Below, piece by piece: positions 9,501-55,539 of a DNA stretch of 64,000 bases. The stretch lies in NCBI GenBank assembly GCA_035221665.1, contig CM069147.1, positions 25,730,001 to 25,794,000 on the forward strand. Direction: 5' to 3'. The position numbers were made by a program, and so were the translations under genes. Positions within the stretch are counted from its first letter, which is position 1. Each line of letters begins with the position of its first letter. This stretch comes from Okamejei kenojei (taxonomy: Eukaryota). The notes beneath the pieces were generated by a model. It ran no database searches, was not told the DNA's origin, and saw only the letters and a program-made list of their open reading frames with translations.

Positions 9501-9514
9501 TTAAATGCTGGCTG
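9501..9514 (-). CDS. Gene A, putative last coding exon: very short cytoplasmic tail (AASI*)
   Basis: Acceptor cacatag|CAGCCAGCATT-TAA. The right copy has the same residues ending in TGA (54722-54735), so the stop position is kept with a different codon. Confidence 0.45.
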
Positions 9515-9752
9515 CTATGTGATGATGTATCGAAATAAAACATAGAATTTTAAATATGTGATAATCAAACATTAGTCACGTGCAAAATTGAATATCTTCA
9601 TTACGTCGGTGCTATTTATTATAATCATAATTGTTGCCCGTGCAAATGTTTCATTTCCTTTATTTATCAAGCGAATCGTGTAATTACCATTTACTATTAC
9701 ATTAATATATTATACTGGGATGATGATAATGTTAAACATGGATGAGAAATTA

Positions 9753-9856
9753 CTCTAAATATAATTGTCATCGCAGACGACAACGATGAACATTAAATTA
9801 AACACTGCACCTCGGATATCTTCCAGCGATTACAGAAGCAGATAAACATTCGACAG
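9753..9856 (-). pseudogene. Gene A, exon 4: transmembrane exon, frameshifted in this copy
   Basis: Acceptor cccacag|CTGTCGAA. Homologous to the intact exon at 54383-54484 but with two single-base insertions (GGAAGATATCC, GTCGTCTGCG); reads AVECLSASVIAGRYPRCSV*. Confidence 0.75.
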
Positions 9857-10641
9857 CTGTGGGGGGGGGTTAAACCGATGGACCAAATGTTTATATTTTA
9901 ATTGAGTATTTCAAAGTAGACCTTTGCGACGAAAAAACAAAGCAAGATATTTCAAATGTTCACTCAATGGATTTTACCAGAACCGCGTGGAAGGCGGCAA
10001 AGAGCCAACAATTTCGATTTATGGCTCGATTAGGATTGAAATAAACAGCTCTTAGGTGAACCTAGTGGGATATTGACGTTAGGGAAAAAAAGAAATTGTG
10101 GAAATAATACATGAATTTGTATATATTCTGTTCACCAACTCTTGAAGGAGATGTTAATGTTACTGACGCTGGCCAGGAGTGAATCATTACAGACGTCTTC
10201 TCCCCACTAACTGTCCCCAATTAATGCAAGAGGCAACAAGATAGTTCTCATAGATAGACTGAAAATGCTAGCGTAACTCAGCGGGTCAGGCAGCATCACA
10301 GCAAAGGAGGTCAGGTGGGGGGTGATGAAAACACGACAGGGGTGAGGGCTGGAGTCAGGGGCGAGCAAAGGTGCTGAAGCAGGGTCGGGTGTGGGGGCCA
10401 GAGGGCTTCAGAGAGGAGGGGTTGGGAGGAGCTGGCAAGGGCGGGCAGGGGAGGGGTATTAAGATCATAAGGAATATGAGAATTAGGCAATTCGGCCTAT
10501 CATGTCTACTCCGCAATTCAACCATGGCTGATCTATCTCCCCCTCCTAACCCTATTCTCCTGCCTTCTCCAAATGACCTCTGATATCTATAGTAGGTGTA
10601 GAGTGGTTAGGAGCAGAAACATCTGTGTTAATTGATTATTT

Positions 10642-10805
10642 TTACATTATTCCTCGGGAAGGTGTGATGTTTGTGGAGGCATCAGAGTGGACTTGTAGAT
10701 CACGTGAAAGGGAATGGGCTACAGGTTCGCGATCGATTGCGGGAACGGTATTGATGAAATTCTTCTGGGAGGCAACATAGACTGGATGGACTTTACAGCG
10801 TCCGT
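10642..10805 (-). CDS. Gene A, possible alternative terminal (secretory-type) exon DGRCKVHPVYVASQKNF...TPSRGIM*
   Basis: Long polypyrimidine tract and tag| acceptor ~165 nt below the C1 donor. A phase-1 join gives an open ~54-residue hydrophilic tail, also open in the right copy (51328-51491). No canonical AATAAA was seen just after it. Confidence 0.35.
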
Positions 10806-10971
10806 CTACGCCGGGAGGAAAAGGATAGAGAAAATAGGAAAATTGCACAAGTTCTCGGAAAATAAATTTGCTGCACAAAATACGGTCTTTTAAAAATCTT
10901 CACATTTTATTTTTACTATTAATATTATTATTCAATGGACTGTCCATTATACTATCCGTAGGAAACGTTAC

Positions 10972-11277
10972 CTTCATGAGGAACCGTGTAGTTGGCAGTT
11001 GCTGGAGTTAGCATAGAACGGTGAATAATTTTACACGTGTAAACGGTTCCTTCTTTGACTGCCCGTTTCTCCTCTAAAGAGCTGATAACTTCATACAATC
11101 CGTCTGCCGTTGAATGTTGTTCATGCCGAAATCCAGATTGGATGATGGAACCATTTCTGTGCCAGGTGAGATTAAATTCTTTCGGGTAAAAGGCAGCCGT
11201 TCTGCACTGGATTTTCAGGAAATGAGTCGCAGCATTTCTAGATCGAACAGATACAATCTTCAGAGGAGAAGGGACAG
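10972..11277 (-). CDS. IgSF receptor gene A, exon 3: C1-set Ig constant domain (absent from the ORF track)
   Basis: Acceptor ctctctacttag|, donor G|gtaacg, 306 nt open, phase 1/1. Translation (A)VPSPLKIVSVRSRNAATHFLKIQCRTAAFYPKEFNLTWHRNGSIIQSGFRHEQHSTADGLYEVISSLEEKRAVKEGTVYTCKIIHRSMLTPATANYTVPHE has C-x4-FYP, W-x-x-NG, DGLY and YTC-x3-H. Confidence 0.93.
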
Positions 11278-12154: not shown

Positions 12155-12466
12155 CATATACGATCAGTTGCTCTCCTGTTCCCTTCCAAACCGTTCGGCC
12201 CGCTTGTTGTGCAAGACAATTGTATGTTCCGGCGTCCGAGACCGTGACATTCAGCAGGTGAAGGTAGGCGCCTCCTGCCCTTATAATGAAGATTTTCCTG
12301 CTATCTTCTTTCAGGAAGCCTTTATTTCTATCTTTCCACCAGAAAACCGTTAGGTTTGACAGATTTACATTGAAGGGGAAGGAACACCGACAGGTAATGT
12401 TTATGCCACTGATCACCGTCTTCTGAACAACATTCGATATCATCTTGCCCGACCTGTTCTCAGCAG
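12155..12466 (-). CDS. IgSF receptor gene A, exon 2: V-set Ig domain with germline-joined J-like motif (NKp30/SIRP/VJ-type)
   Basis: Acceptor ctaatgacag|, donor G|gtgagc, 312 nt open, phase 1/1. Translation has the V-set hallmarks ITCRCSFP, VFWWK, AYLHLLNVTVSDAGTYNC and the J-like KGTGEQLIVY. Confidence 0.92.
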
Positions 12467-12988: not shown

Positions 12989-15249
12989 GAAGGCTGTTTT
13001 ATTTGAGGACCTCAAACAGTGCGCACATTGATCATTTCTCGATTTTCGTCCTCGTGAGAGGATCTAATTAAAATAAGATGCCAAATAAGAAAATTGCCTC
13101 CCCCCCCCCTCGAGAATTTGATAAGGCCATGAATGAACCAATCTTGGTTTCAAACGCCGCTTTTCTGTTATTTTCCCCTTTAACGACCTTCAAAGCTCAT
13201 ATATTTCCTCAGATTTGCCTTGTATACATTCAATAACGCCCACCCAGATCCTTCTCTTTTCTGTTTAGTATGTGTTCCACCCTTTGGTTCCCTTAAATTT
13301 CGCACTAGAAACCCTAATTAAAAAGTACGTTCCCGCAATCAACACGACCGCCCACAACCCGGAGCATTTATATGTTTCAATATGATCACCTCTTGTTTTA
13401 TATAGTCCATCACGACATAACTATAGATTTAAGTAGTTATGCCTGGGTACCTTGCTGTGGCATTCCGCCATTCACTGTTAGTCAATCAGGAAATCATCCA
13501 TTCATCCCATTGCCCTTTTCAGATAATTAACCATCACAGCATCCATTTCCTTATAAATTATATCGATAACACGTTCGCGTGTTCCTATCTTGATCAGATA
13601 TCTTCTATAGGGAATAATATAAAGTGCTTCAGGATATCCATATATAGGTTCTTAGAGTTCCCTTTTATTCACATTGCTCCATCGTGAAATAATGCTAGAA
13701 AATATATCAAAATATGTGTGTTTTTCATAAACCCACTGACTCTTGATAGACTTATAGTTTCATCAACGCCCCGCTACTCTTTAATCAGTAATGGATTTGA
13801 ACACTTTCCCACTCGCAATTGACAGAATAACTTGCCAATAGTTTCCTCCTATTTGTGCCACTCTTGTCTTTACACGTTTACAGTTTTCCCAGATCTATTC
13901 AAAATTCACGAAGTTTTATTTCAGTACAAAATAGAACCCGCCACATCTACAGTCACCCCATTGGTTCGTAGTTAAACCACCGAAAACGTTCTTCTATCGC
14001 CATAGCATCTCCTTAATTATTATTGTTCGATATTCCTAGTTTCCTCTACCGGGGAAACCAGATACTAAGCTATTGTTTACAATGCTTCGCACATTCCACC
14101 CCATGAATAATATAATACACACATTCGTTATGGGGTAAAATGTTTAATTTAGTTACTCTCTTCCTTGTTATCTATGTGAAGAATGTCTTGCTCTCCGCCT
14201 CAATGTTATTTATTGCATTACGCACAGGCTCTGGCCCGTTCTCGTTATTTTATTTTACCCGTCGGATCTTAGTTTAGATGAGCTTAGATACAGCGTGGAA
14301 ACAGACCCTTCGCGCCACCGAGTCCGCGCCGACCAACGATCACCTGTACATTGCTTCTCTTCTACACACAAGGGACAATTTACAGAGGTCAATTAACCTA
14401 CAAACCCGCAAGCCTTTTGGGATGTCGAACGAAAACGGAGCAGCCGGGGAAAACCCAACGATCACACTCAAAACATGCAGACATCACCCGTCGTCAAGTT
14501 CGAGCCCGCGTCTCTGGCGCTGTGAGGCAGCGGACTCGAAACCAGTTAGGTAATAATATGTACAAATTGACTATTCATGCTAACGCGGGTTGTTTACATT
14601 CGAAATATATTAGTCTCTGTGGTATTTCTTTTATTATCCTTCATAAAGATCCAATCAAATAACATCGGTCGTATAGGCCTTGTCACGTTTAAAAAGTGGG
14701 ATTTTTATCCGATTTACGTAGTCTCTGAAATTTATGTGGAGGTCGGAGCCGGGACCTTTTTTTTACCGACCGACTCCAGCAGCATCAAAATTGCTTTGAC
14801 TCCGACTCGACGACTCCCACTCCGACTCCACAGCCCTGGATTCAACAATGTATAATTATTTTAATAAGGCGAAGTAACATATTTACTATCCTCCTCGTTT
14901 CCCTGGTGGACCCTGTATTGATTCTCATCGTGCCTTTACTACTGACGATGTGCACCTTAGGCGCAAGATCTTATTTAGCATTGAAGATGTCTGCGTTTCT
15001 TGTCGATTATGAACTTAGTCACGGACTCGGTGTTGAAGGTATCGGAGAATAAACAAAACAAATCGGGCAGGTAAAATGAAGGTGCATTCTTATTCAGCTC
15101 ATTATCTAGTAAGGGCTAGGTTCAATTTCGCTATGGAAACGTGGTGAATTTAATTATATTTTGTTTAAAATTGAGAATTTACTCATACTGATAATTAAAT
15201 TGCGGGGCTGTTCTTCAAATCTCGTGTGGCTCAATTAAGCCCTTTATAG

Positions 15250-16120
15250 GATGTGTTATATCTGGACTTTCAGAAGGCTTTCGACAAGGTCCCACCTAAG
15301 AGATTAGCATACAAACTTAAAGCACACGGTATTGGGGGTTCAGTATTGATGTGGATAGAGAACTGGCTGGCAGTCAGGAAGCAAAGAGTAGGAGTAAACG
15401 GGTCATTTTCAGAATGGCAGGCAGTGACTAGTGGAGTACCGCAAGGCTCAGTGCTGGGACCCCAGCTATTTATAATATATATTAATGATCTGGATGAGGG
15501 AATTGAATGCAACATCTCCAAGTTTGCGGATGACACGATGCTAGGGGGCAGTGTTAGCTGTGTGGAGGATGCTAGGAGGCTGCAAGGTGACTTGGATAGG
15601 TTGGGTGAGTGGGCAAATGCATGGCAGATGCAGTATAATGTGGATAAGTGTGAGGTTATCCACTTTGGCGGCAAAAACAGGAGGGTAGACTATTATCTGA
15701 ATGGTGGCCGATTAGGAAAAGGGGAGATCTTATAGAGACTTACAGAATTCTTAAGGGGTTTGAGAGGCTAGATGCAGGAAGATTGTTCCCGATGTTGGGG
15801 AGCTCCAAAATAAGGGGTCACAGTTTAAGGATAAGGGGGAAGTCTTTTAGGACCGAGATGAGAAGATCTTTTTTCACACAGAGAGTGGCGAGTCTATGGA
15901 ATTCTCTGCCACAGAAGGTAGTTGAGGCCAGTTCATTGGCTATATTTAAGAGGGAGTTAGATGTGGCCCTTGTGGCTAAAGGGATCAGGGGTTATGGAGA
16001 GAAGGCAGGTACAGGATACTGATTTGGATGATCAGCCATTATCATATTGAATGGCGGTGCAAGCTCGAAGGGCCGAATGGACTACTCCTGCACCTATTTT
16101 CTATGATTCTATGATTCTAT
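15250..16120 (+). mobile_element. Young 5'-truncated CR1 LINE (RT domain plus 3' tail), internally deleted at ~15727
   Basis: YLDFQKAFDKVP...GVPQGSVLGP...KFADDT; 3' tail ttctatgattctatgattctat. Confidence 0.92.
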
Positions 16121-18120
16121 ATCATAACCTTGCCCCAATCGAGGCTACGTAATTTCAACCTATTAATGTGGTTCGCTTTCAATGCCACCTGAAACATACT
16201 AGTGATTGGGGTGAGCTACCCATGAACACAAAATTAAACTATGTCTTGTAAAAAAAAACAGTACCTGCATACAAAATCCGCAGAGGAAACACGACTAAAG
16301 GCGAGATGAGTTGAAAGAAATCGGCAATGAATTTTCTGATCAGAAAGGAAAGAATGCATCAATCATGTGGCTCTACATCTGCTAGAATGATCTACTTTAT
16401 GTGCAATCACAGAACATTTACGTGCTTACTTGCAGGGGCTTTGAAGAATGGAAACTAAAGACGTGGCTCAAACCGGAACAGGTTAGGAAATAATTAGACC
16501 TCACGAAAGTAAAAGAATGTCGGCAACGTAATCATTCATTCATTCAAATGTCCTTATTTTTACACTCCGTCTGAAACGATTAAATGAACAGGTCTTCACT
16601 ACCGGCTGCATGTAATCTAATTACCAGACCTTACACGAACTGAAGCGGACCCCCGAGTACAATTTTGCCTCATTTTAGGAAGGTTTATATTTAAGATGTT
16701 AAAAGGACCACAGGCTCGCATATTAACGGCAATATTATATTCGAGTTAGTAAATGTAAAGCAATAACTGCATTGTTCATATTTATCTTCAAATTAATGTT
16801 CCAGGTTGACAAACATCGTGTGGTTAATGGTATGCAGTATTTTGTTGAAAGCTTTACAACTAATTCGATTACGAGCTCATATTGGTTGCACGGTTATTCT
16901 TCACAATTGTAATGTTAACTGGATGCAACAAAGTGAGTTTTAACTGTCCACAAATTCGAATTGCAATTCGGAATGCTGTGAAGCCGCATTTAAAATGATC
17001 GCATTTTAACAAAGGTATTTAATTAGAATAATTAACTTAATTACATTGATTAAATTAACCTACTTACATTAACATCCATTATGCATATATTGCCGTTTGG
17101 CGTTCATGGATTGAACAAGTCTGCTTTGGTTTGAACTGGACTGTTGTTTCTGTACGTAGAACTGTATAATTCCGTCCGTTTCCATGCACTGTCACAAAAT
17201 AATACCTGGCGTCGCAGTTTGTTTGGTCCAACGACTACGTGCGTCAAGCAAGTTATACATTAATACCAGTTTAATCCATATAAAGTCACTCTCCCGTTCC
17301 ATCACCCACAAACACTACGCGACATCTTATCCAATTATCCTATCGACTCATTTTTTCGATATATGTGAATTATCGGAGCACGTGGTTAGTACTGGTGTCA
17401 GAGATTAGTTCTTGATTAGTACAGGTGTCAGAGGTTATGGGGAGAAAGCAGAAGAATGGGAATAAGAGGAACGGGTAATTACATAAGCCATGATTGAATG
17501 GCGGAGTGTAACTTAATGGGCATTTGGCCTGATTGTTGTCCTATCGCTTATGACCTCATGACGTGGTCAACTGGAGAACGGGAAAAAACCCCTCGGGCGG
17601 CTAGATTCAACCGGGGCTTCTAGTTGAGGTAACACATCTGTAAGCTGCACGCTTCTCCATCTTATACAAAAAAATCACGTCTGTCAATTTAAACAGTAAT
17701 CATAACGCTTCGTCATTTACATCAGTTGGGTGGATACGTGATAGACGGGAGATATCTTTGAACGTCTGAAATTAGTGAAGCGATGGATTCATTTCCGCGA
17801 TGGGAGAGATAGGCTGAATGTTAACTCATTCAGCGTATTTCTGAGCAAATATTGTGATTCAGAGAAGAAGTAAAAAGTATGAAAACATCTTGTTTATCTA
17901 AGTGTTGAATGAACGTCACTGTTAAATTAGATCAAATGAAATAGTGACAGTCGACTCCAGTCAATGGTTTCACTGGCAGCAAGAGATACTCAATAATGCT
18001 CTGTCCTCACTATATTGCCTGATGTTACGGATGTCACGTCGTAAACACAGAACATTGTGAGACGGGAGGGCGAGAAGCCATATCTCGTGGTCCATATTAG
18101 TATCAATTCCATATAACGAA

Positions 18121-18504
18121 ACATAGAAACATAGAAAATAAGTGCAGGAGGAGGCCATTCGGCCATTCGAGCCAGCACGGCCATTCATTGTGATAATGGC
18201 TGATCTTTCCCAATCAATAACCCGTACCTGCGTTCTCCCCATATCCCTTGATTCCACTAGCCCCATAGAGCTCTATCTAACTCTCTCTGAAATACATCCA
18301 GTGACTTGGCCTCCACTGCCCACTGCGGCAGGAAATTCCACAAATTCATAACTCTCTGGGAGAAAACGTTTTTTCTCACCTAAGTCTTACATGGCTTCCC
18401 CTTTATTCTAAGACTGTGGGCCCCTGGTTCTGGACTCGCCCAACATTGGGAACATTTTTCCTGCATCTAGCTTGTCCGGTCCTTTTATAATTTTATATGT
18501 TTCT
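18121..18504 (-). mobile_element. CR1 3' fragment (left arm only)
   Basis: acatagaaacatagaaa tail; KLDAGKMFPMLGESRTRG. Confidence 0.85.
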
Positions 18505-20720
18505 AAATAAAAGGGACACGAGGGCATGCAAAGAGAATTTAGGGAGTTCGGTATTCGGTGAAAAAAAATACACTCCAGGATTGCTATCTCGGGATTACAA
18601 AACGGTACCGAAAGGAAATAGCAGAATAATCCAAGTGAATACGTGGCTAAGACCTTGGTGTGGGGAGAAGTGCATAAAATATATGGTTTTCTTACAGGAC
18701 AAATGGGACGTATATAAAACAGACGGGTTGCAATTGAACTGTGAGGTAGAGGCGGTGTCCTTGCAGTTACTTGTGTTACATGGGAGGATTTATGCACGAG
18801 GGGTGGGGTGGAGTGAGCACGGAGGGCGCGGGGGGGGGGGGGGGGGGGGCGTGGGACAAACAGGTTCAACCCATGGAACAGCTAGTGGGCATAGATCGGG
18901 GTTATGATCATTCGTCTGAAATGGAGGTGAGACAGGGAAAAGGTTAATAAAAACATGTAAGATGGATGATCTGAAGTGTGACAAAAAATGCTGGAGAAAA
19001 ACTCAGCGGGCGAGGCAGCATCTATGGAGCGAAGGAAATAGGCAACGTTTCGGGCCGAACCCTTATTCAGACGTGTGTTTTGTAATATGGAGTGTGTTTT
19101 GACTGAGGCTACGGAACACGTTGAAACAGATCGGTTGAGATGTGTTTATTCCAAGGAATAGTACAGTTAAAGCGGAATGATTCGAAGACTGCTAACTCAA
19201 CATTTATGGAGTTTTGACGATTCATACATTATTAGGGATGGGGTACAAGAGATACAGGATGTGCATTACAAATCAGGAAAATGTCAGCGGCACACACATG
19301 CTCATCTACTGAGGGCATAGGGTTGTAACACAATATAAAGAGAGGTTGTAACAAACTCTGATGGGATTATACCATATTAGTCGGTGAATGACAGAGAAAC
19401 AGGTATGTGGGGAGATTAGAGAAAGATGTCAAAACAACAAGTTTCCGGTATCGGTGGACAAATCCCTATTATTGACTGTGACTTCCTCCGTGCGAAGATA
19501 TAACGAGAGAAAGCTTGGTTAGGTGTATCCAAGGCCGTTTCTTGAAACAGTCTGTGGATATTCCAACTCGACACCGGGAACATGTTACACCTTGCTTTGG
19601 GAAATGAACTTGATGTTTCAGTAGAAGAGCAATTTGGGATCCCTGATCATAAATCCATAGGTTTTTAAGATAGCTACGGATAAGGGTCCATCTAGTATTG
19701 GGGAGATGAAATGGTGGAGCAGATGTTGTTGGGTATATTTACATTGGACATGGTGGGTGGAGTCGATTTAAGGCCAACTGATCAGAAATCAGGACCAGTA
19801 TATGCCAGTAAGGAGGAGGAATGATGTTGTATAGGCGAGGGAAGATTGGATGACTGAGATATTGTAAATTAGGGTGAAAATATGCTGGTGCACTTTGAGA
19901 ACAAGAAAGAGGCGTTGTGGGGTTCTCTTCAAAAGCCTTAAGGTGAATAAATTCCAAGGGCCGGTGGAATCTGCCCCCTTTTCTTGAGGGAGGCAAGGGA
20001 GGAGATGTGATTGCAGCGCCTTTGATGAGAACTTTGGTATCCACTTAAGCCATAATCGATTTCCCGGATGATGAAGTAGTAGCGAATGTTGCCCTTTTCT
20101 TTCTGAAGGAAAGAAGTAATCAAGGAAATGACACAAGCTATTGAGGTTCATGTCAGTCATCGGGAATCTAATGGAGCTCACGTCTCATTTAATTTAATGT
20201 AACGATGAAGGTGATTTATGTGGATTGGGTAGTGACATTTGTCTGCATGGATTCCAGCAAACCATTTCGAGAAATCCGTAATTGAATGCTAATCGAGAAG
20301 ATTTCAGTTTGAGGGACACATGGTGATTTGTTACTTTGGATTGATTAGCTGCAGTTAGTTTTACGCACAGTTCTGGTTGCCCCATTACAGGAATGATGTG
20401 GATGCAGAGGAGGTTTACCCAGAATCGTTGCCTGGATTAGAGAGTTTCTGCTACAAAGAGAGGTTGGATAAAACCTAGATTATTTTCTCTGGAACGTCAG
20501 AGGCTCAGGGGACAATAGAATACAATTATTTTTTGTTTTAATTGATGCGCATAGATAGGGTAGTCTGTCACAAATTTTATCCTAGGGTGGGGAATGTCCA
20601 ACATTTATAGGGCATAGATATAAATTGAGTAGGGACGTTTAATATTGATGTATGCGGCAAGCTCTTTACACAGAGATATGTTGGCAGAGGGGCTGGAATG
20701 CATCGTGCTGATCACGGTGT
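18505..20720 (+). mobile_element. Old degenerate CR1 including SGNH-esterase-like ORF1, EN and RT remnants
   Basis: RIIQVNTWLRPWC...WDVYKTDGLQLN (CR1 ORF1-like), followed by decayed CR1 ORF2 sequence. Confidence 0.65.
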
Positions 20721-20729
20721 GCATTCATC

Positions 20730-21720
20730 CCATCTGCCCACGTTTGGTCTCCAAAAACCATCCATGTCCTGTTCAAATGTCCTTTAAATGTTGTTGCAGT
20801 TTCCAGGCTCAATAATCTCATCTGGCAGTTCATTTCATATCCCCACTATCATGTGGGAAAAACGGCTCCCCAGCTCCTTATACAGCTGTAACATAGCATC
20901 CCCAAATTCTAAACTTATTTACCCCTGACTGATGTAAAGGCTGTGTGCCGAAAGCCTTCTTAAATACCCTGTCTACCTGTGATACCGCTCTCAAGGAACT
21001 ATGTAATTAACCAGCACACCTTGACCCCTTGCTCTACAAGCTCCCTGGCGATATGTCGTTTACTATTGATGTCCTGCCCACATATGACTTCCCAAAATAT
21101 AAAACCTCATACTTATCTGCATTACACTCATTGACCATTCATCAGCCCACTTGCCCAACTGAACAAAATTACTGCTGTAGCTTTGAATACCATTTTCGCT
21201 ATCTACAATATTACCCAATTAAACAGTCGTCTGCAATCTTGCTAATCCGGCCTTGTATGTTCTCATCCAAATCGTTGATATACAGCAAGCCACAAACAGC
21301 AATAGACCCAGCACCGATCTTGGAGCACACCACTGTTCAGAGCCCTCCATCGAAACCATCTGAAGAAGGGTCTGGACCCATAACGTCACATTCCTTCTCT
21401 CCAGAGATGCTGTCGGTCCCGCTGATTTACTTCAGCATTTTGTGTCCATCTTCGCATTAAACCAGCAGCTACGAACACAATTGCCACCCTGCAATCTTCC
21501 GGTGTCTCACCATAGTTAATGATGGATCGTATATCTCAGCCAGGTCACCTGCAATTTGTTCTCTAGCTTCCCGCAGTGCCCTCGGATAAATCTGATCAGG
21601 CCCGGAGGATTTCGCTACCTTTTACACGTTGGGACGTTGAGCACCTCTATCGTTAATAACCGATTGCCCATCAGGACACTTCCATTGATTGCTCCCAAGT
21701 TCCCAGATCTTCATGTTTTT
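20730..21720 (-). mobile_element. Old CR1 fragment
   Basis: Decayed reverse-strand CR1 RT/3' sequence (aacagtcgtctgcaatctt, gttctcatccaaatcgttgatata). Confidence 0.6.
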
Positions 21721-22236
21721 CATGCAAGGAAAAGCCTAGGAACTATAGATCTGTGCCTGACATCTATGGCAGATATGTTACTGGAGAGTATTCTGAGTTA
21801 AGATATATATGCAGCTTTATGAGCAATGGCTGATCAGTGGACATTGAACCTGGTGTGTATTTACGAAGGTGATATAACCTCACATATGATCACGAGTTTA
21901 GAAGAAGCAACTTAGAAAGTTGAAGATCTAAATCAGAGGCCAGATATAATGTTCATATGGAAGGTTCTGCATGCCAAGTTACCCTGGAAAGCTACATGGC
22001 GTGTGAGAGCTAGTTTAATGGGTAGAAATCTGATTTATGGAAGGAAGTTGTTTAAAAAATATTTTAAAATTCAGACTGAAGGCTGTGACTCTTGCTGTGT
22101 TTCATGGATCGCGCGGCTGGGTCCCTTTGCAATTTGTGTTTTATATCAACAATTTGGATGAGAAACATTGAATAAGGCATGATTACAATTATCTGCAGAT
22201 GCTATTAATGGAGGTGGTATCGTAGACAGTGTCGAC

Positions 22237-22530
22237 ACGGCAGCGCGCTTAGTGGTAGAGTTGCTGCCTGACAGCGCCAAAAGACTCTGGTTCGATTCTG
22301 ACTACGGGTGCTGTGTGTGTGGAATTCCCTGTGACCACGTGAATTTTCTCCGAGAACTTTAGTTTCCCCCCACACTCCAAAGCAGTACAGGTTTGTAGGT
22401 TAATAGATTTGGTCTAAATGTAAATTCTCCTTAGTGTGTGTACGACAGCATTAATGTATGGGGATTGCTGGTTGGTGCAGACTTGGTGGGCAAAAGGGCC
22501 CGTTTCCACACGGTACCTCTAAACTCTAAA
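22237..22530 (+). mobile_element. HE1-like tRNA-derived SINE (other copies ~9180-9440, 14270-14533, 31145-31460, 41120-41380, 45780-46080, 46975-47230, 54795-55060)
   Basis: tRNA-like head (ggtagagttgctgcct...ggttcgattctgact), conserved body (gtttgtaggttaat), ctctaaact-type tail. Confidence 0.75.
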
Positions 22531-22535
22531 AAGTA

Positions 22536-22902
22536 GAAGCCGGCTGCGATGCTAGTTGAAGGTCGTTGCCGGAGGTTGCAGGTAGTGGAAGGTAAGACCT
22601 TTTTTTTTCACCCAGTTTTATTCCACCAGGGAGGTCTTACCTTCCACTACCTGCAACCTCCAGCAACCACCAACTAGCATCGCACACCGGCTTTGACGAT
22701 AATATTACCGATTTTTAAAACGGCAACCTATTTTTAGTCGCGACCGGTTTTTATTTTTTTTTAATAATCGCCGGAACACAGAAGAGGCGGAAACACTTTC
22801 GACCATTAGGGGGACTGACAAAAACTTCGGGAACCGCTCGGAAACATTGGGTGGGGCGCAAAGTCTCCAGAGGTTTCCGTTCAGGTTTCAGTGGGACAGG
22901 GG
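22536..22902. mobile_element. MITE remnant (Harbinger-like end agtgggacagggg) containing a ~62-bp-stem hairpin
   Basis: 22537-22600 is the near-perfect reverse complement of 22632-22693. Confidence 0.55.
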
Positions 22903-23059
22903 CATTAAAAGTGCAGCCTGGGGAGCAAACGGTTCGACGAAAACGTTCGGCCTGCTTTCTGCTGCCGTTGGAGGTGAGACGTTGCGTTGGCCTGGGCTCA
23001 CGGCCGTTACGTTCGGATCCGCCCCCACTTCTAGTCCCAGAGCAAGGCCCAAGAAAATT

Positions 23060-23256
23060 GAAGATAGACACAAAATGCAGGAGTAACTCAGCGGGACCGG
23101 CAACATCATTGGAGAGAAGGAATGGATGACGTTTCGGGTCAAGACCCTTCTTTCAGGACTGAAGGGGGGTCTCGACCCGAAACATCATTTTCATTTCTTC
23201 ACTCCAGAGATGCTGCCGGTTACGCTGAGTTATCCTACTTTTTGTGTCCATCTTCA
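23060..23256. mobile_element. Palindromic Penelope-derived short element with degenerate hammerhead-ribozyme cores
   Basis: Two inverted copies of the unit CTGAAGA-AGGGTC-loop-GACCC-GAAACGTC; related copies at ~11990-12130, 18980-19072, 21357-21455, 35600-35812, 46417-46600, 49870-50020. Confidence 0.6.
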
Positions 23257-23404
23257 AACTGACGTCACGCGATCCAGACGGCTGTGCGTACGCATCAAGT
23301 CTCGCCGCGACCTTCGCAGGACTGCCGCGCATCAACGCGACCACGAGGTCGCGTTAATTAGCGTGCCAAGGACTCACGTAAGTGGGACTGGGATTAACTA
23401 TTCC

Positions 23405-23845
23405 ACTTGCTTGTCATAGAATCGTTAGAATCATAGAAAATAGGTGCAGGGAGTATGCCATTCGGCCATTCGAGCCTGCACCGCTATTCAATATGATCAT
23501 GGCTGATCATCCAATCAGTATCCTGTACCTGCCTTCTCTCCATACCCACTGATCCCTTTAGCCACAAGGGCCACATCTAAATACCTCTTAACTATAGCCA
23601 ATGAAACTGGACTCAACTACCTTCGTGCAGAGAATTCCACAGGAATCACCACACTCTGTGTGAAAAAAGATCTTCTCATCTCGGTCCAAAAAGACTTCCC
23701 CATTATCCTTAACTGTGACCGCTTGTTCTGGAGTTCCCCAACATCGGGAAACAATCTTCCTGCATCTAGCCTGTCCAACCCTTAACAATTTTGTAGTATC
23801 TATAAGATCCCCACTCAATCTCCTAATTCCAGCGTGTACAAGCCG
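23405..23845 (-). mobile_element. CR1 3' fragment
   Basis: Reverse complement of the 15730-16120 CR1 3' end. Confidence 0.85.
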
Positions 23846-25469
23846 AACCTCACTGTTTGTTGAAAATGAATAATGAATAGACTTCGGTGACTTGCACAAA
23901 AAAACAATAATGATTATTAGACTTCGGTGACTTGCAGGTACCTTTGTATATCACCATTTCCGCATATCTCACACTAAAAGAAAATATAATCGGACCTGTG
24001 CACTGTCTGTCTACGTGTGTGTATAATTTCAATTTCTCCTCATGGTACTCATCTGCCTCGGCATTTACTCATTGTATTTCATCTGTCGTGACATATCTAC
24101 TCATCCACGTATTTCTAAGGCAAGCTAAACCTGGCCACCTTGCCGAATCCGTTGATTAAACCTGTTCATACTTCAATAACGTATCATTTCATTTTCATTG
24201 GGCTGAGCTTCCACATTGAGAAGTGTCTGTTTATTCCGATTCATCGCTCTTTCGCATCATCAACCAAGACACAATTCACACGTCTCTACTGATCCCTATT
24301 CTAAGTGCATCTTTTATTTTTCACCCGGCTTCGATTTTGAAAAAGCTTTGGGAGATTGAAAGTCTGTGGTAACCCAAAAAGCAGCAGCCGCTTGCAGACG
24401 CACCACGATTGTGCCACTACTAGAATAACAAGGGCAGCACATGTTTGCTATAATACTTGATCCGACTTTCCCGTTTCGCGGCGATCCATTGTCCTCTCTT
24501 TCCCTCGCTCTCAAGTTCAAGTTCAATAACCAGTTAAATTTGAGTCACATACGTCATACGAAGGGAATAGAGTACAGTACACACTAAAATAAATTGTACA
24601 AAAACATGCACCACAGTGGAAATCAACATTCCTCACTGTGATGGAAGGCAATAAAGTTCAGTGATTTCCTGTTTTCTTCACGCGTGGTAGTCGGGGCCTT
24701 GATCCCTCTCCCCAGTTCGCCGCTGCCGACGGTCCGATGTCCAGGACCTCTCGGCGGGATAAATCGAAACTCGGCGTCCGGACGGATTGGAACACTCCGC
24801 GGCACGGTATAGGTAAGCGTTAAAACGAGTCGGCCTCTTTCTACCGGAGACCGCGGGCTGCACGGTGGTCAAGCCCACAGGCCCCGCGGACGGAGCTCTT
24901 CTTCTGGCGATCCTCGGTAAAGGATCCATGGACTCCAGCGATGGTGTAAGTCAGTCGCACCGCGGGGGGCTGAATCTTCGGGGGCCGGTATCCAGGAAAG
25001 GCGCAGCACCAGGTTGTTGAAAGTTTCACATTTATTCAGGAACTATCCAGAAATTATTATCCGAATCTATAGAACCTCAGAGGATAATATCCAATATATG
25101 TATTATATGTCAAAATTCTGCAAATCTGTGCAATATAGTAGACCAGCTGCGATTGGAATTCATTCAATTCTTAGGCGCATAAATCTCTTCAATGTTGGTA
25201 AATAGTAGATATGGGTTTCTACGTGTGCTCTGGTTTCTTCCTACATCCCAAACACTTGTAGTTTGTTGACTGCTGTAAATTTGCCCTTAACATGCAGGTA
25301 GTCGTGAAGGGCGAGGAAAGTGGGATAACATGGAACTGGTGTCAAGGGGTTGGCGTGGATTCGATGCTCCGATGGGACTGTTTCAATATTCTCTATATTC
25401 TATACTCTTTAGTACACATTTTAGATTTTTATTCACCGGCCTATCATATAAGCCAATTTGGTTGCCTAG

Positions 25470-26370: not shown

Positions 26371-26388
26371 TGACGTAAAAAGTGAAAC
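26371..26388 (+). promoter_or_regulatory. CRE/ATF site adjacent to an IRF-type element upstream of gene B
   Basis: TGACGTAA overlapping AAAAGTGAAAC, ~130 nt upstream of the candidate leader ATG. Confidence 0.35.
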
Positions 26389-26500
26389 AGAACCACTGGG
26401 CCACGCGGTATTGCTGCAAGGCCGGTCGCCAACAAGCTTCACTGCTTGACTCGCTGTCAGAGAGCTAACATCGGGTTGAATTTCACTGCTTTTGTTCAGA

Positions 26501-39507: not shown

Positions 39508-39793
39508 TTGTTCCCGATGCCTTTGAAGATTAAACAGATGAAACACTCCCTTCCCTGGCCCTAAAACTGTACAACAGCACCGTTTTTCCCTGAGGTACTG
39601 TGAACTTACCTGGTATAAAGATGACCAAAAATCATTCTGGAATCAAGTACCACTAAAATACCGGAACGAGCAGGGATTATACCTTTGCTTCAGCTTCCTG
39701 CATGTAGTGGATAGCCGATTCGGTTTATAGTTGCAAAGTGTCTCACGCACCTCCTGGTTCCGACCGTTGAAATCACAGGAGTTCTTGGAATGG
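39508..39793 (+). pseudogene. Gene C: second C1-set Ig exon (disabled as assembled), paralog of the gene A C1
   Basis: LFPMPLKIKQ...CTTAPFFPE / ELTWYKDDQK / RNEQGLY / DSVYSCKVSHA aligns with VPSPLKI...CRTAAFYPK...LTWHRNG...DGLY...VYTCKIIH. Confidence 0.8.
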
Positions 39794-40717: not shown

Positions 40718-41069
40718 AGGCCAAGGGAGATTTAATAACATACGCTGTCTATTAACTTCGATTTATGTTTTTTTTTTCATTCGTTACTGATCCTGTGATG
40801 AGATTCATTCAGTAAGAGGTAAATGACAATAAAGTAGAAATAAGAACTGTTTGAACCGGGCAACACACACAATGACGGATAGTTGCGATAATGTGGTGAG
40901 GGGCTTTCTATGAACTGTCTGATACTGCTCTGAGCTCCCAGACTTATATATGTTTTTGTTATGTATGCACCTGTTATCTGGAATTTATCCCATTATTTTC
41001 AATTCATAGAAACTGCCAGGTAACTTCCAATTTTCTGAATTGCTGAATTTATTTTTTTCAGATCTATAG
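40718..41069 (+). pseudogene. Gene C, candidate TM exon with Arg (40718-~40818) and tiny tail exon (41062-41069, DL*)
   Basis: actacag|AG GCC AAG GGA GAT TTA ATA ACA TAC GCT GTC...CTT CGA TTT ATG TTT TTT... followed by gtaaga/gtaaat donors, then atttttttcag|ATCTATAG. An in-frame stop and indels are present. Confidence 0.35.
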
Positions 41070-41990
41070 TTTTAGGCAAATGTAGTTGGAAGATATTCCA
41101 TAACGCTTTTTTGTGACTCTTGGAGGTAGCCCACCAAGTCCACGCTGATCACTCGATCACCGGCATATTTATATCTCTGTTAGAACACTTTTTATTCACT
41201 CACTACACACTGGCGACAATTTGCAGAAGCCAATTAGCCTATCCACACCTCCACATCAGGGGATGTGGAGGAAACCGGATCACCCGAAGAACCACCAACA
41301 CGATCACTTCCACACGGACAGCCTCCAGGTGAGGATCAAACCTGTGTCTCTCGCGCTTATTAGGCAGCAGCTGTTACAGCTGGTATTCCCCAAACAGTCA
41401 AATAGCCTCACCAAAATATTACAGTTTTAATTGAAAATCGGGGAAAGGGGTAAAACTCTGGCGGGAGTAACGCAGCGTCCCTGGATTTTTATTACTGGAA
41501 GTTTTGAAAGGGCAAACATTACGATATATTTCGTGAATGCGAAGGTATGGTGGAAAGGCATTATGTGGCTCGCGGGGATAAAGGAGGGTGAAGATGGTTG
41601 GTGGTGAATAATGCCTTTGCGCTTAAAGAAAGTAGTGGGAGATCAGCGGTCAGCTGGTGCCATGGTCTGCGAATGGTCGCTTAAAATATGAGCATGATTC
41701 TTGCGAGATTAGAGTACGGAATATGTTTGACAAGAAGATTCACAGGCGTGAGTAGGCTCCCCTATGTTGGAGCGTTTGTCGGCACTGGGCCTGTTTTCGC
41801 TGGAGTTCAGAGAATGACGGAGGTACCTATTTGTAACATATAGAATAGTGAAAAAAAACAAAGGCGTGGGTTAGCAGTGCCATGTGGAGAGAATGTTTCC
41901 ACTTGCGGGGAGAGTCCAGGACGAGGTCATAGCCTCAGAAGGTATAATTAAAGAAGACCTGTGGAGGCCGTCAAGTGAATATTTTTTAGG

Positions 41991-42490
41991 NNNNNNNNNN
42001 NNNNNNNNNNNNNNNNNNNNNNNNNNNNNNNNNNNNNNNNNNNNNNNNNNNNNNNNNNNNNNNNNNNNNNNNNNNNNNNNNNNNNNNNNNNNNNNNNNNN
42101 NNNNNNNNNNNNNNNNNNNNNNNNNNNNNNNNNNNNNNNNNNNNNNNNNNNNNNNNNNNNNNNNNNNNNNNNNNNNNNNNNNNNNNNNNNNNNNNNNNNN
42201 NNNNNNNNNNNNNNNNNNNNNNNNNNNNNNNNNNNNNNNNNNNNNNNNNNNNNNNNNNNNNNNNNNNNNNNNNNNNNNNNNNNNNNNNNNNNNNNNNNNN
42301 NNNNNNNNNNNNNNNNNNNNNNNNNNNNNNNNNNNNNNNNNNNNNNNNNNNNNNNNNNNNNNNNNNNNNNNNNNNNNNNNNNNNNNNNNNNNNNNNNNNN
42401 NNNNNNNNNNNNNNNNNNNNNNNNNNNNNNNNNNNNNNNNNNNNNNNNNNNNNNNNNNNNNNNNNNNNNNNNNNNNNNNNNNNNNNNNNN
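41991..42490. other. Assembly gap (exactly 500 N; looks like a fixed-size scaffolding join)
   Basis: N run of round length. Confidence 1.
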
Positions 42491-48400: not shown

Positions 48401-51400
48401 ATGAATGGTATTTCCTGGATTGAATATCGTGCAGGGCGGAATGCCTCCAGCAAGGTACCCAGGGCATAACTACTTAATCTATATCGTGTATGTCGTGATG
48501 GACCCTACTGAAACAAGGATGGTGTCATATTGACAAACATATAATTGCGCAGGGTTGTGGGCATGGTCGGGTTGGCTTGCGGGAAGTACTTTTTAAATTT
48601 TTTTTTTTTTTTTTTTGGGGTTTTTTTTTTTCTTAGTACGGAAATTTAAGGGAACCCCCCGGGTGGAACCAAATTACAAACGAAAAAAGGTATCTGGTGT
48701 GGGCGTTAGTTGAGTATATACAAGGCAAAAATTGAGGAGAAATAATATAGGTTTTTTGAGGGTCGTTAAGGGGGAAACAGAACAGAAATAAGCGGCGTGA
48801 TTGAAACTAAGAGTTGGTTCATTTGTGGCCATCAAATTCTCGATGGTGGGGGGGGGGCAATTTTCTTCGTTTGGCATCTTATTTTAATTAGTCTCTGACA
48901 CTGATGGACGAAAAATCTCGGAGAATGAATGATCAATGTGCGCATTTTGAGGTCTCTCAAAAAAAACTGCCTTCTATTTCCTGACGCGAATTTACCGCCT
49001 TCAGGCAACTCAGACAGCCTTCTTAACGCAACGATTTCTCGGCTCCATGTTCCGGGGGGACCGATGTTGATTCGGAGTCAGTGTAGAAGATACCGTGACG
49101 ATTATTAACCCGACCTTTTCCTCATTCCCCGCCAGGCTGCTTCGTCTCGGTCCGATCTGTATTTGAAAGTTGGACCCTTGGAAGATGTATTCCTTGGAAT
49201 TTTGACTGCGGGTAGTGTGTGAGACACACGGCTTTTTATTTTGGGTCTTCCAAAATACGCAGATATGATCGTTGTCACCTGATAATGTCACTGCCGAATT
49301 TGTCCATAAAGTCATTGCTGTTGTTATGAGTTCTGGACAGTGGTGTAATTTACCCCGAAACCTTTACGCGGACCAAAAGCGAGGCATAATGAATTCGGGT
49401 TCAAATTCATTGTAAATATTTGGTTTCTGCTTGCAAGATTTTTACCAGCAGTGTTTAATTTCCATTGTGCTATATCAATGACTAAACTGGATTGTGCACC
49501 CATCTAATGACAGCTGCTGAGAAAACAGGTCGGGCCAAGAAGATTATTCGAATGTTGTTCGTAAGTACGGTGTGTCTCAGTGGCATCTAAATATTCCGCT
49601 GTCGGTGTGTTCCTTCCCCTTCAATGCGTGTACAATCTGGCAAACCTAACGGTTTTCTGTGGAAAGATAGAAACAAAGGCTTCCTGAAAGAAAACAGCAG
49701 GAAGAGAGATCTTAATATAAGGGCTGAGGAGGCGCATATCTTCACTGCTGAATGTCAGGTCTCGGAACGCCGGACACATTACATTGTCTTGCACAACAAA
49801 GCACGGGCCGCAACGGTTTGGATGGGACAGGAGAGCAACTGATCGTCTATGGTGAGCGAAGGTTCTTTTAGTTGCTAGAGACAAAAGATGTGGAGGAATG
49901 ACTCAGGGGTGCAGCAAGATCTATGGAAACGAAGGATATAGGCAACGTTTCGTCCCGAATGATGTGCTGCGTCCGCTGAGTTTCTTCAGCACTTCGATTT
50001 TCCAGCTTCTGCAGTTCCTCTTAGGTATTCAGTGTGCAGCTCGAATTAGGATTTTGCCTTACACAAAAGTCTTGTTAATCCAGATTCCTGAAATGTGTTA
50101 AAACGTTGTCGGGGGGGGGGAGATTAATTATTGTAACACACAAAGGGAACATTAACATAAAGAACACATGCCTCAAGTAAACAATTATTCTAGATTGGCT
50201 CATATCTAAAATTATAGGCCAGAGGGAATGTCAGCAATGATATTTGAGCTGATAGTATATTGGAAGGTGGGTGGAGGTGGTCATATGAATAATACAGCGG
50301 TGTCAATTTGACCTGACTCGTCCGAGGTGGGGGAGGGATCTTCTGTTGATGATTGCCTAATGAGTAATGGTATCAACATATAGTCCTGTTGCATTGAAGA
50401 GCGGAGGTTTTTACTTCCCCAAAATAATTGAAATATAATAGTTATTATTTCTTGCGCCGCGAAATAGAGAACTCAAGAAATTTTCTTCAAAGCTTTCTCT
50501 GTAAGCCAGTCAAAGGTCTGCGCACAGGTTTATGACTGATAATATTGGGAAGTTGAATATTCACACAGAGTGATTGTGCCGTAGAAAAGAGTTTTGACAA
50601 CTTGAAAAGTGAATTCGCAGACATGGTAGACAAGAAAGCAAACCTGTGCAAATTCGGCTCTTTTCTTAAATTAAATGTCAAGGGAATAGCATGTCAAGGG
50701 ATGGGGGGGGGGGGGGGGGGACAATTGCGATGAATTTATACAACCTTCATCTGGGCTCCGTTTTTAAAAATTTATGATGGAATATTAAAAGTAGCGTTGT
50801 GAAATAATGCTATTGGTTGATGTCATCGACTTTTCCCTTTCTTTTAGTTATAACCCTTCTACTTAGCTGTACTTTCGCCTCTGAAGATTGTATCTATTCG
50901 ATCTAGAAATGCCTGCGACTCATGTTCCTGAAATCAGTGCAGAACGGGCTGCCTTTTACCGAAAGGAAATTTAATCTCACCTGGCACTTCAGGAACTGGT
51001 CCCTCATAAATCGGATTTCGGCATGATCAACATTTAACGGCAGATCGGATTGTATGAAGTTATCAGCTTTTAGAGGAGAACGGGCAGTCAAAGGAGGAAC
51101 CGTTTACACGTGTAAAATTATTCACCGTTCTATGCTAACTCCAGCAACTGCCAACTACACGGTTCCTCATGAAGGTAACGTTTCCTACGGATAGTATAAT
51201 GGACAGTCCATTGAATAATAATATTAATAGTAAAAATAAAATGTGAAGATTTTTTAAAGACCGTATTTTGTGCAGCAAATTTATTTTCCGAGAACTTGTG
51301 CAATTTTCCTATTTTCTCCCAGCGTAGACGGACGCTGTAAAGTCCATCCAGTCTATGTTGCCTCCCCGAAGAATTTCATCAATACCGTTCCCGCAATCGA

Positions 51401-51569
51401 TCGCGAACCTGCAGCCCATTCCCGTTCACGTGATCTACAAGTCCACTCTGATGCCTCCACAAACATCACACCTTCCCGAGGAATAATGTAAAAAGAATCA
51501 ATTAACACACAAAGCAGTTCCTTGGTAAAATCTCAGAGAATGTGCAATGTCCATGCAGACAGTACCGGA

Positions 51570-52250
51570 GGGTACACAAAATGCTGGAGAAACTCAGCGG
51601 GTGTAGCAGCATCTATGGAGCGAAGGAGATAGGCAACGTATCGGGCCGAAACCTTCCTCGCCTTCCCCCCACCTGGTGGGGGGAGGCGGAGGGAAGAAAG
51701 GAAAAGGGAGCAGGCGGAGCCCGAGGGCTGAGGGAGGGATAAGAAGGAGAGAAGACAACAAAGGGTTAACAGAATTGAGAAAATTCGATGTTCATGCCAA
51801 GAGGATGCAGACTTCCCTAGCGGAATATGAGGTGCTGTTTCTCCAATTTGCGGTGTTGCTCTCGCTGGCCGTGAAGGAGGCCCAGGATAGAGAGGTCGGA
51901 TACGGAATGGAGGGGTGAGTTGAAGTGCTGAGCTACGGGAGGTGGGTTGTTAATGCGGACCGAACGGATGGTATTCGGGCGAAACGATCGCCAAGCCTCC
52001 GCTTGGTCTCACCGATATAGATCAACTGACATCTAGGAGCAAGCGGATGCAATAGATTAAGGTGGAGGCGGTGCAGGTGAACCTCTTGTCGGACCTGGAA
52101 ACGTTGTTGGGTCATTGAATGGAGTGGAGGGGGGAGGTAAAGCGACATGTGTAGCATCTCTTTGGTTGCAAGGGAAAGTGCCGGGGAAAGGGGCGGAGCG
52201 GGAGGGAAATGAAGGTTGACAAAGGGTGTTGCGGAGGGAACGGTACTTTG
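51570..52250 (-). mobile_element. Penelope-like element remnant with GIY-YIG endonuclease
   Basis: CQLIYIGETKRRLGDRF motif; flanked by the ctcagcgggtg...gaaggagataggcaacg terminal repeat. A second PLE-like remnant lies at ~52871-53985. Confidence 0.8.
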
Positions 52251-54382
52251 CGGAAGTCCTCCGCAAACTCCAGCGGAAGCATCCAGCATAGTGGGACGAA
52301 GTAATCGAGAAGGAGTTCGGGGGTAACGCCGCAGCGAATGTTGTTGAACAAGCACATGCACCATGTAACCAACACATGGTTAGCCAGTAAGCTGATGTGA
52401 GTGTCCATGATGCTGCAACTTTAACTTGGAGAAAGTGAGTGGAGTCAAATTGAATTGTTGATGGGGTGACGAAAAATTCTCTAGACACAGGAGATTGTTC
52501 GTTTATGAGAAAAATATATTTGGTCTATTTTCAAGGAAGAAACGGAGGCCATGAGATGTTTCTGCTCCTAACCACTCTACACCTACTATAGATATCAGAG
52601 GTCATTGGGAGGAAGGAAGGAGAATAGGGTTGGAGGAGAGATAGATCCAGGCATGGTTGATTTGCGGAAGTAGACATGATGGGCCGAATTGCCTAATTAC
52701 TCTATTCCTTTAAGATATTAATACCCCTCCCCTGGCCCGCCCTTGCACAGCTCCTCATCCCCTCCTCTTGAAGCCCTCTGCCCCCTACCCGACCCTGCTT
52801 CAGCACCTTTGCTCGCCTGACTCAGCCTCACCCCTGTCGTGTTTTCACCACCCCCTGGACCTTCCTTTGCGATACAGAACGGCCAGTCTTCGAATCAATT
52901 GAGCTACATCCTACACCCGTGCAACCTCAACTTACTCACTAATGTCTACTTGCCTAAAAGGACCTGGACTATCTCGATACCGCTCTATCCTTCCTTTCTC
53001 TTCTCCATTCGCTCCACCAGCCACCGCCAATCCTAAACATCATCGTCGACATTTCGTCGCCCGCCACTGATTCCCATTAATAATCACTATATTTACATTC
53101 ATGTGCGCTTTCGCCTTTTGCAGGGATGTTCCTCCACAACTATGGTTAATTAATCCCTTTAAAACGCAGACCACCCCAAACCGAAGGTAAATTCTTTTAC
53201 AACTGCGAGGATGGATGTAAACACTCGCTCTGTACCTCCCTCCTCTCCTCTATGACGGACTACCGACTGGTCTTCTCCAGGTTGACAGTAGTTCATATGA
53301 TCTTCCTCTTAATGTTATCTACTGTCTCCGTTGGTCTGGTATGGCCGGGGTCCATGTATAATAGTTAATTTTTTTCTATTTTTTTTTTTTTTTTTTTTAC
53401 TGTGAAAAAGGTGTGGATTTAATCGGCATTTAGCCTGCATGCTCTGGACTATTGGATTCTCCCAGTTGCTAAGTATTTAATTCCCTTTCTCATTCTACAC
53501 TGACCTTTCTGTCGAGGACCTGCCTTGGGCACAGTGGCGGAAAGCAAAATTCGTGCGAACAACCACCTCATATTTCATTGTATGGCATACAGCCCAGGCG
53601 GCTAAAGAAAGTTGAATTCTCCAAATTTTAGTAATGTCCACAAACATTACCTCCATATCCTTGCCCCGCCCGCCCCCTCCACATTTGCCACCTTCCTCCT
53701 CTAAATGTCGATTAACCAGTCCACAATTTGCAAACGATGTAGCCCCTCTTGGCATAACGTCGTCTCCCCCTAACCAAACATTCGCCTAATCTGGGAACCT
53801 CCTGGTGTTGGGGGTCAAGGATATGTAGCTGGTGCTTCGGTGTCCTCCCCCCCCCCCCCCACCCCCCCCCCACCCCCCCCCCCACAATCAGTCTGAACAA
53901 GTGTCCCGACACAAAACGTCACCTCTCCATTTTCTCCAATGATGCTGCCTGACCCGCTGAGTTACGCCAGCATTTTCAGTCTATCTATGAGAGTTATCTT
54001 GTTGGCTCTTGCATTAATTGGGGACAGTTAGTGGGGAGAAGACGTCTGTAACGATTCACTCCTGGCCAGCGTCAGTAACATTAACATCTCCTTCAAGAGT
54101 TGGTGAACAGAATATATCCAAATTAATGTATTATGTTCCACAATTTTCTGTTTCCTAACGGTCAATATCCCACTAGGTTCACTTAAGATCTGTTTATTTC
54201 AATCCTAATCGAGCCATAAATCGAAATTGTTGGCTCTTTGCCGCCTTCCACGCGGTTCTGGGGAAATCCATTGAGTGAACATTTGAAATATCTTGCTTTG
54301 TTTTCCGCAAAGTCTACTTTGAAATACTGAATTAAATATAAACATTTGGTCATCGGTTTAACCCCCCACCCCCCCTCCAAAG

Positions 54383-54484
54383 CTGTCGATGGTTTATCTG
54401 CTTCTCTAATCGCTGGAAGTATCCGAGGTGCAGTGTTAATTTTAATGTTCATCGTTGTCGTCGCGATGACAATTATATTTAGAG
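54383..54484 (+). CDS. Gene A' intact transmembrane exon with intramembrane Arg (AVDGLSASLIAGSIRGAVLILMFIVVVAMTIIFR)
   Basis: Acceptor ctccaaag|, donor AG|gtatgt, 102 nt, phase 1/1; hydrophobic stretch containing R. Confidence 0.85.
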
Positions 54485-55539
54485 GTATGTTTCTCATCCA
54501 TGTTTTAACATTATCATCCCAGTATAATATTATAATGTAATAGTATTGGTAATTACACGATTCTCTTGATAATAAAGGAAATGAAACATTTGCACGGACA
54601 AAAATTATGATTATAATAAACAGCACCGACTTAACGATAGATATTCAATTTTGCATGTGACTAATGTTTGATGATCACATATTTTGAATTATATGTTTTA
54701 TTTCGACACATCGTCACATAGCAGCCAGCATTTGATTGTACCTATTGGTCAAGATCTGAACATCTGTGAATTTTCCGATAAAAATGTTTTTCATTGGTTG
54801 AAAGATACAGTAGAGAAATAGGCCTTTTAACCCATCGATTCTATGCCGGCCATCGATCATCCGTTCACACCAGGTCTACGTTAACCTACTTTCGCATCCA
54901 CTCAATACACAGTGGGGGCAATTTACAGAGGTCAATTAACCCACTAATCCGCACATTCTTGGGATATGGGAGTATACTGGAGCAACGGGTAAAATCCACG
55001 TGGTCACAGGGAGAATATGCCTCAAACTCCGCATTTACCTGTTCCACCACTGTGTCGTCCAACATCTTGGAAAAAACGTGGCAGAAACAACGTGGTGTAT
55101 GTAGTGAAGCGTATATAGTGAAACTCTACCGTGCAATTATCACATGATATTACGTTCTTTGCGTGCTAGAAAACACCATGTCGCACGGCCATTTATCACT
55201 ATTTTATATTTCCGAGCAGGTGCAAAGAAGCGTACAGGAAATACTAAATCGGACACAAAGTTTGGTAAGGCTTATTTAATACATGACTATTCCATTTGTG
55301 AAAGTAGAGACAGGATTCTGCCTTTATTGAAACCAAATCGTTTTAATAAGGACCACGTCTTATTCTGTTTGAACGTATGCCCAATCCGTGAAGTTCACAG
55401 TCCACTACACAAAGGAGGACAAAAAGAACAATATACAATGCATTTACAGAAGTTCGCATTTATTATAAATATATATATTGTTTACACCAGGTGTGGTAAA
55501 AGGAATATTTTCATTGTACCTTACTGCTTCTTGTCCAGC

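Follow-up and report, generated by a model that had tools for sequence, protein, structure and literature searches.

A 64,000-nucleotide stretch of chromosome C17 of Okamejei kenojei (C17:25730001-25794000 of the 2.76-Gb assembly GCA_035221665.1, contig CM069147.1; hereafter, the window) carries three copies of immunoglobulin (Ig)-type receptor genes, named A, A' and B; all C17 coordinates below refer to the same chromosome. In these genes a V domain and its J-like end share a single exon (VJ), followed by a C1 exon and by exons for a transmembrane (TM) segment and tail. The DNA itself shows how the exons are chained, two types of membrane segment, tail motifs, near-identical gene pairs of opposite type and lesions in an error-like pattern. 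The window is interpreted, with a probability of about 80%, as part of a tandemly arranged family of VJ-C1 receptor genes that do not rearrange, in which A and A' are likely activating and a truncated B is likely inhibitory. The family itself is a real and under-described set of paired, putatively activating and inhibitory receptors.

Gene B occupies the spacer between A and A', where an earlier reading of the letters alone (the original prediction) had placed a divergent V exon, a divergent C1 exon and several charged TM exons. Both domain exons are real: scored with a frameshift-aware profile from which all B-type genes had been left out, the V exon reached 62.9, against maxima of 25.0 in 57 other window pieces and 24.1 in 40 shuffles, and the C1 exon 70.0, against 24.7 in 58 other pieces and 23.9 in 40 shuffles. 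Pfam responded weakly to single frames of the window copy (V-set, E 0.084, in one of three frames, the other two blank); the open twin exons about 106 kb upstream gave V-set at 4.4e-11 and C1-set at 3.1e-13. The V-C1 spacing is 11.9 kb in the twin and 5.2 kb in the paralogue B0, and on the evidence of these homologous loci and of the manta relative P0178 the two window exons are parts of one gene. P0178, with 47-56% identity to the domains of B and B0, joins V, C1, an uncharged TM segment and a tyrosine-bearing tail in a single chain, and its tail is identical to the last exon of B at 15 of 39 positions (E 9e-7); XP_072135199 is a RefSeq relative of B. A homologue search with the V domain of B gave no match among 57 candidates; the protein search with the V profile was dominated by obscurin-like and other long multi-Ig proteins, and the PDB profile searches by multi-domain proteins. 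Where at least three to four hidden members had been proposed, the spacer holds one gene and the window three copies.

The window copy of B ends at a stretch of 500 N, about 3.2 kb short of the position of the twin's TM exon. That exon lies 5.4 kb after C1 and encodes an uncharged run of 23 residues; three tail exons follow, which in B0 are in frame and carry four tyrosine motifs (PTYADI, TTYGQV, LTYTTL and TEYAGI). Gene B is thus likely of the uncharged, tyrosine-tailed, inhibitory type, and not activating. A reading resembling an ITIM (immunoreceptor tyrosine-based inhibitory motif), LITYAVIN, also occurs in the C1-TM intron (window 40700-40760; C17:25664.3k and 25438.8k); it is kept in twin B and B0, with synonymous changes, and lost from a third B copy, and is possibly a relic tail exon or the end of a secreted form.

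Both gene-A copies named in the original prediction are present (Table 1). Their membrane Arg lies near the outer face of the helix, as it does in four ray orthologues (IVRG), and the tail exon of A' tentatively reads DIQFCM-stop. To judge from this membrane exon, gene A is likely of the Arg, activating type, so that the earlier claim of activating receptors applies to gene A and fails for the spacer. Substitutions between A and A' are symmetric (12 versus 13 of 885 clean sites) and real, so that A' is a paralogue or haplotype in its own right, with errors superimposed; the indels of A and A' were judged by assembly comparison alone.

Table 1. Genes, rejected candidates and assembly features of the window, in window coordinates.
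Feature	Position	Strand	Basis
Gene A membrane exon with Arg (IRGAV), small indels, damaged donor	9753..9856	-	Aligned to A' and to paralogue A2
Gene A C1 exon, open	10972..11277	-	Pfam C1-set 6.1e-10
Gene A single-exon VJ domain, open	12155..12466	-	Pfam ig/V-set; 66% identity to sawfish P0001; J-like end WKGTGEQLIV
Error-rich same-strand copy of C17:25638679-25665524	14473..41990	+	1.4-2.3% mismatch, 4.0-7.1% gaps; polarised differences
Gene B VJ exon, frameshifted	26763..27090	+	Open twin exon at C17:25650.8k
Piece of B intron, not a TM exon	27321..27456	+	Hydropathy, frame, comparison with twin
Repeat-derived piece within B's V-C1 intron, not a TM exon	34463..34547	+	Depth, absence from B0, frame
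Gene B C1 exon, frameshifted	39508..39793	+	Open twin exon at C17:25663.1k
Piece of C1-TM intron of B, not a TM exon	40718..40818	+	LITYAVIN in twin and B0
500-N stretch, most likely a scaffold gap	41991..42490	.	Equal size at C17:25509004 and 25638178
Gene A' VJ exon, indel-rich	49518..49852	+	Copy of A
Gene A' C1 exon, indel-rich	50867..51177	+	Copy of A
Gene A' membrane exon, open: Arg then 18 uncharged residues	54383..54484	+	Hydropathy and exon prediction

The window genes belong to a larger family, which was surveyed in 1.06 Mb fetched around all C17 search matches. This sequence holds 24 V and 25 C1 exons with open frames, located at 17.16, 20.36-20.76 and 25.37-25.87 Mb, counts that may include false duplicates. 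In both clusters most genes stand in tandem and share one orientation. Every one of the 24 V exons is followed by a C1 exon on the same strand, and the V-TM architecture that had been proposed was found at none of them. The 23 predicted TM exons, classed partly by eye, comprise nine with an Arg near the outer face and 14 without. Five near-identical pairs, with V identities of 89/103 to 102/104 (86-98%), have opposite predicted TM types; clustering and similar ectodomains on opposite signalling ends are features of a paired receptor family. V and J share one exon, as in non-rearranging VJ-C1 genes; a J-like GxG closes the V exon in 20 of the 24, and no match resembling a recombination signal sequence was seen at the 3 of 24 V exons scanned. 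Pooled over nine pairs, the ratio of non-synonymous to synonymous divergence (pN/pS) was 0.62 for V and 0.45 for C1, with no sign of general positive selection in these pooled values; V pN/pS exceeded 1, on small counts, for A/A2, B/B0 and 20.449/20.421. Gene 20.675 is of the Arg TM type, and the deep branches of the tree are weak. At C17:25708519-25716914, V and C1 exons of the type of gene C, a neighbour of A and B, precede an Arg TM exon of the type of gene D, another neighbour, and the locus looks like a chimeric gene that arose through exon exchange or a deletion. Gene D has its tandem tyrosine tail exon in two places (C17:25844.8k and 25847.9k), about 3 kb apart. A lone divergent member with an uncharged TM lies at C17:17.16-17.17 Mb, 3 Mb from the nearest cluster.

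Relatives were drawn from the best 150 matches of the sawfish orthologue, of which 76 were 200-500 amino acids long and 61 contained the family V and C1 domains; one V and one C1 were scored in 59 of these 61. Twenty-two have an uncharged TM and a tyrosine motif, 14 an uncharged TM without the motif (a few showing Arg by eye), nine a charged TM without the motif and one a charged TM with it, and 15 are without a TM. The 16 relatives whose records were checked belong to chimaera, sharks, rays and skates, and the membrane segments of the cluster are nearly identical to Amblyraja and Leucoraja models. Relatives from sharks, rays and chimaera bear automatic SIRP-, B7-H6- (NCR3LG1-) or tapasin-like names; the chondrichthyan RefSeq models called SIRP-like, NCR3LG1-like or tapasin-related-like, of which the orthologues of A are 54-66% identical, are of the same family and carry automatic names alone, without attached function. 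A literature search whose coverage did not extend to subscription journals found no published description of this family.

Among known systems SIRP is close in several respects: after titin, the top PDB matches of the sawfish orthologue are SIRP-alpha (E 2.7e-15) and SIRP-gamma (4.1e-14), and both systems combine VJ-type and C1 domains with activating and inhibitory members. The four-tyrosine tail ending in TEYAGI resembles that of SIRP-alpha. The SIRP ectodomain, however, is V-C1-C1, whereas the window genes have a single C1, and the SEP-domain and syntaphilin-family genes, which flank human SIRP (the NSFL1C/SNPH region), lie on C20 and C4 rather than C17. Activating members of the skate family have their Arg near the outer face, unlike SIRP-beta, which signals via DAP12 (PMC3533184). 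A CD47 profile gave no match anywhere, controls included. NKp30 (NCR3) has a TM Arg; unlike it, the family has a C1 domain and inhibitory members (a comparison made outside the shark NCR3 subtypes) and is not linked to the major histocompatibility complex (MHC), all 15 MHC class I matches being on C30. A single-exon VJ domain is common to both (PMC12227049). The non-rearranging VJ-C1 build is likewise shared with UrIg, UrIg2 and tetrapod VJ-C1 genes (PMC10751288, PMC12227049), but UrIg and UrIg2 have three and nine C1 domains, respectively, and linkage to the MHC or to Ig/T-cell receptor (TCR) loci, and the family has one C1, signalling tails and about 25 copies. It is reportedly also the build of PRARP. 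LILRs use C2-type domains, and neither they nor the MDIRs are VJ-C1. Clustered activating and inhibitory members are nonetheless found in LILR/PIR, where the Arg of LILRA pairs with FcR-gamma (PMC3533184), and in the MDIRs, a skate family of CD300/TREM/pIgR-like activating and inhibitory receptors (PMC3031540). By analogy, the family would work like the SIRP or LILR systems, and it is best filed as neither SIRP nor NCR3.

The roles of A and B are assigned because of established paired-receptor biology, in which ITIMs are set against a membrane Arg or Lys (PMC3533184). Both features were found: on the one hand the four in-frame motifs of B0 and the tyrosine motifs of 22 of the 61 relatives, and on the other the charged TM of A' and the IVRG of the four ray orthologues. 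By this analogy a B-type chain would bind a host ligand and brake the cell via SHP-1/2 recruited by its tyrosine motifs, and the Arg of an A-type chain would pair with the Asp in a dimer of FcR-gamma or CD3-zeta, leading to activation; duplication and exchange of membrane and tail exons would keep generating on/off pairs. Two zeta-family adaptor exons with a TM Asp are present in this genome, candidates for FcR-gamma and CD3-zeta. More tentatively, and at somewhat worse than even odds, this unnamed, chondrichthyan-wide germline family could serve sharks, rays and chimaeras as their principal on/off system of the KIR/LILR/SIRP kind, one that time and again makes activating twins of inhibitory genes by a swap of membrane and tail exons, and might preserve the unsplit VJ-C1 chain ancestral to antigen receptors.

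Several observations weigh against the assignment of the window genes to two signalling types. The twin's second tail exon has one extra base (88 versus 87 nucleotides) and its tail contains a non-canonical RTYATL, so the twin B is perhaps weakened or mis-sequenced too. Splice signals, proximity and homology were the basis on which every TM and tail exon here was predicted; the scan for tails was noisy, with many chance matches, its motifs were chosen by eye, and a tail was obtained for seven of the 14 uncharged genes. The TM exon of gene A itself shows damage in the assembly, as judged by comparison of assembled copies. Paralogue A2 (C17:25524672) has Gly in place of the TM Arg of A, A' and the ray orthologues, and the horn-shark relative of A, P0127, has an uncharged TM and tyrosine motifs; the Arg is therefore not fixed across the A lineage. 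Lastly, the window B copy is either the redundant end of a contig or a genuine duplicate of recent origin.

The arrangement of the copies reflects the assembly as well as the genes. Self-alignment of the window showed its arms, 1-19346 and 42498-63637, to be mutual, gap-rich inverted copies. The error-rich segment containing B and its upstream counterpart (Table 1) are opposite ends of a single contig bounded by 500-N stretches. The contig that begins at 42491 has a 2.3-kb overlap with the end of the contig preceding C17:25638178, and an insertion common to these two is missing from the window's left arm; from the overlap and the common insertion, the contig bearing A and B seems to have been dropped into that junction. 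With it turned round, every unit reads B-A-C-D in one sense, and the inversion of A and A' is probably a scaffolding flip. Of the mixed orientation originally proposed, the head-to-head order of B and A stands, being found in three units and the sole window arrangement to recur in other units. Elsewhere, about 10 kb is repeated across a 500-N stretch (C17:25498782-25509003 and 25509504-25519794) with error-type differences, likely another false duplication.

The original prediction saw in the spacer a number of activating receptors, some built as V-TM and others as V-C1-TM, a reading that the real V and C1 exons and the Arg TM of A' favour and that is nonetheless very improbable. None of its three TM candidates has, at the proposed boundaries, an open frame in phase 1, the end phase of the V and C1 exons. 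Hydropathy was taken as the best 19-residue window, with 2000 random window pieces as the null. At 0.93, the piece at 27321 falls below the 1.3 reached by 481 of these, and its 'KWETIIMLASIV' frame is not preserved in the twin or in B0; the piece at 40718 scores 1.37, its Arg frame is unlike that of the twin, and its position is downstream of C1 but ahead of the real TM exon. Roughly a quarter of random pieces are as hydrophobic as these two. The piece at 40718 was also considered as an ITIM exon of B and dropped once the TM exon had been located 5.4 kb after C1. The piece at 34463 is truly hydrophobic (2.57; 2.2 was reached by 50 of 2000 pieces), in the window and in the twin, and has AG/GT ends. 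Its Lys frame, however, comes after a TAG, the twin's hydrophobic frame is without the Lys, the piece is missing from the intact B0, and its contig depth marks it as a repeat, at about 600 per bin and, for three of the four runs, 12-20 contigs each at 34566-7. The TM of B is uncharged and lies beyond the gap, and a C1 accompanies every open V. Nor are B and A' at all likely to be true pseudogenes, dead duplicates of birth-and-death evolution. Decay does occur nearby, in a B-type copy (C17:25604-25630k) whose V and C1 are split by insertions, and the real substitutions between A and A' bespeak a distinct copy or haplotype. The lesions in question, by contrast, are scattered one-base indels that rise toward contig ends, lie nearly all on one copy and show a transversion excess. 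Polarised with a paralogue outgroup, 32 of 36 alignment differences in V and 49 of 50 in C1 fall on the window copy, counts of alignment columns that are inflated by misalignment near indels; over 1719 clean sites, 23 differences are window-derived (21 of them transversions) and six twin-derived. At 26833, 26874, 26985 and 27000, short-read contigs of run X1, which may be the assembly's own sample, give the letter of the twin at full depth, and those of run X5, from another study, agree at full depth at three of these sites and partially at 27000; the window's letters are missing from the contigs at these four B exon sites, which are the ones displayed from a comparison with 808 further rows. 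The polarised, transversion-rich lesions and the short-read letters point to long-read errors, and the frameshifts of the window B are most likely due to sequencing or assembly error rather than to gene death. Of the birth-and-death proposal there remains an expanding and decaying multigene family, larger than the window, with these frameshifts removed from its evidence.

It is also unlikely, if slightly less so than the pseudogene account, that the A and B chains are partners in a TCR-like non-rearranging heterodimer rather than independent paired receptors. This would follow the PRARP idea, which reportedly concerns head-to-head chains of a two-chain receptor, and it draws on the resemblance of the VJ-C1 build, with its frequent J-like GxG, to an antigen-receptor chain and on the B/A head-to-head units. 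Against it stand the predominantly tandem, co-oriented order of both clusters, the nearly identical ectodomains of pairs of opposite sign, and the fact that the best non-repeat PDB matches are SIRP-alpha and SIRP-gamma. The independent paired-receptor interpretation is preferred. The receptors by which innate cells of sharks and skates discriminate self from non-self are poorly known, and about 25 VJ-C1 genes with near-identical on/off twins offer concrete candidates, along with ready-made pairs, in which ligands and signalling could be tested. The locus also illustrates how error-rich contig ends can make one inhibitory gene resemble several dead activating genes, and an improved assembly is needed before genes in this cluster can be counted reliably.

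No flanking gene was identified among the 143 of 774 flank open reading frames (ORFs) run through Pfam; only mobile-element-type domains were returned, namely integrase, RNase H, reverse transcriptase, endonuclease and DUF7041. Both arms contain long C/T-rich low-complexity tracts (353-4513 and 59900-63340), which give rise to many spurious long ORFs. Reverse-transcriptase-like fragments of long interspersed nuclear elements lie at 15250-16120, 23416-23838 and 36048-37277, and contig depth is very high at 35760-38880.

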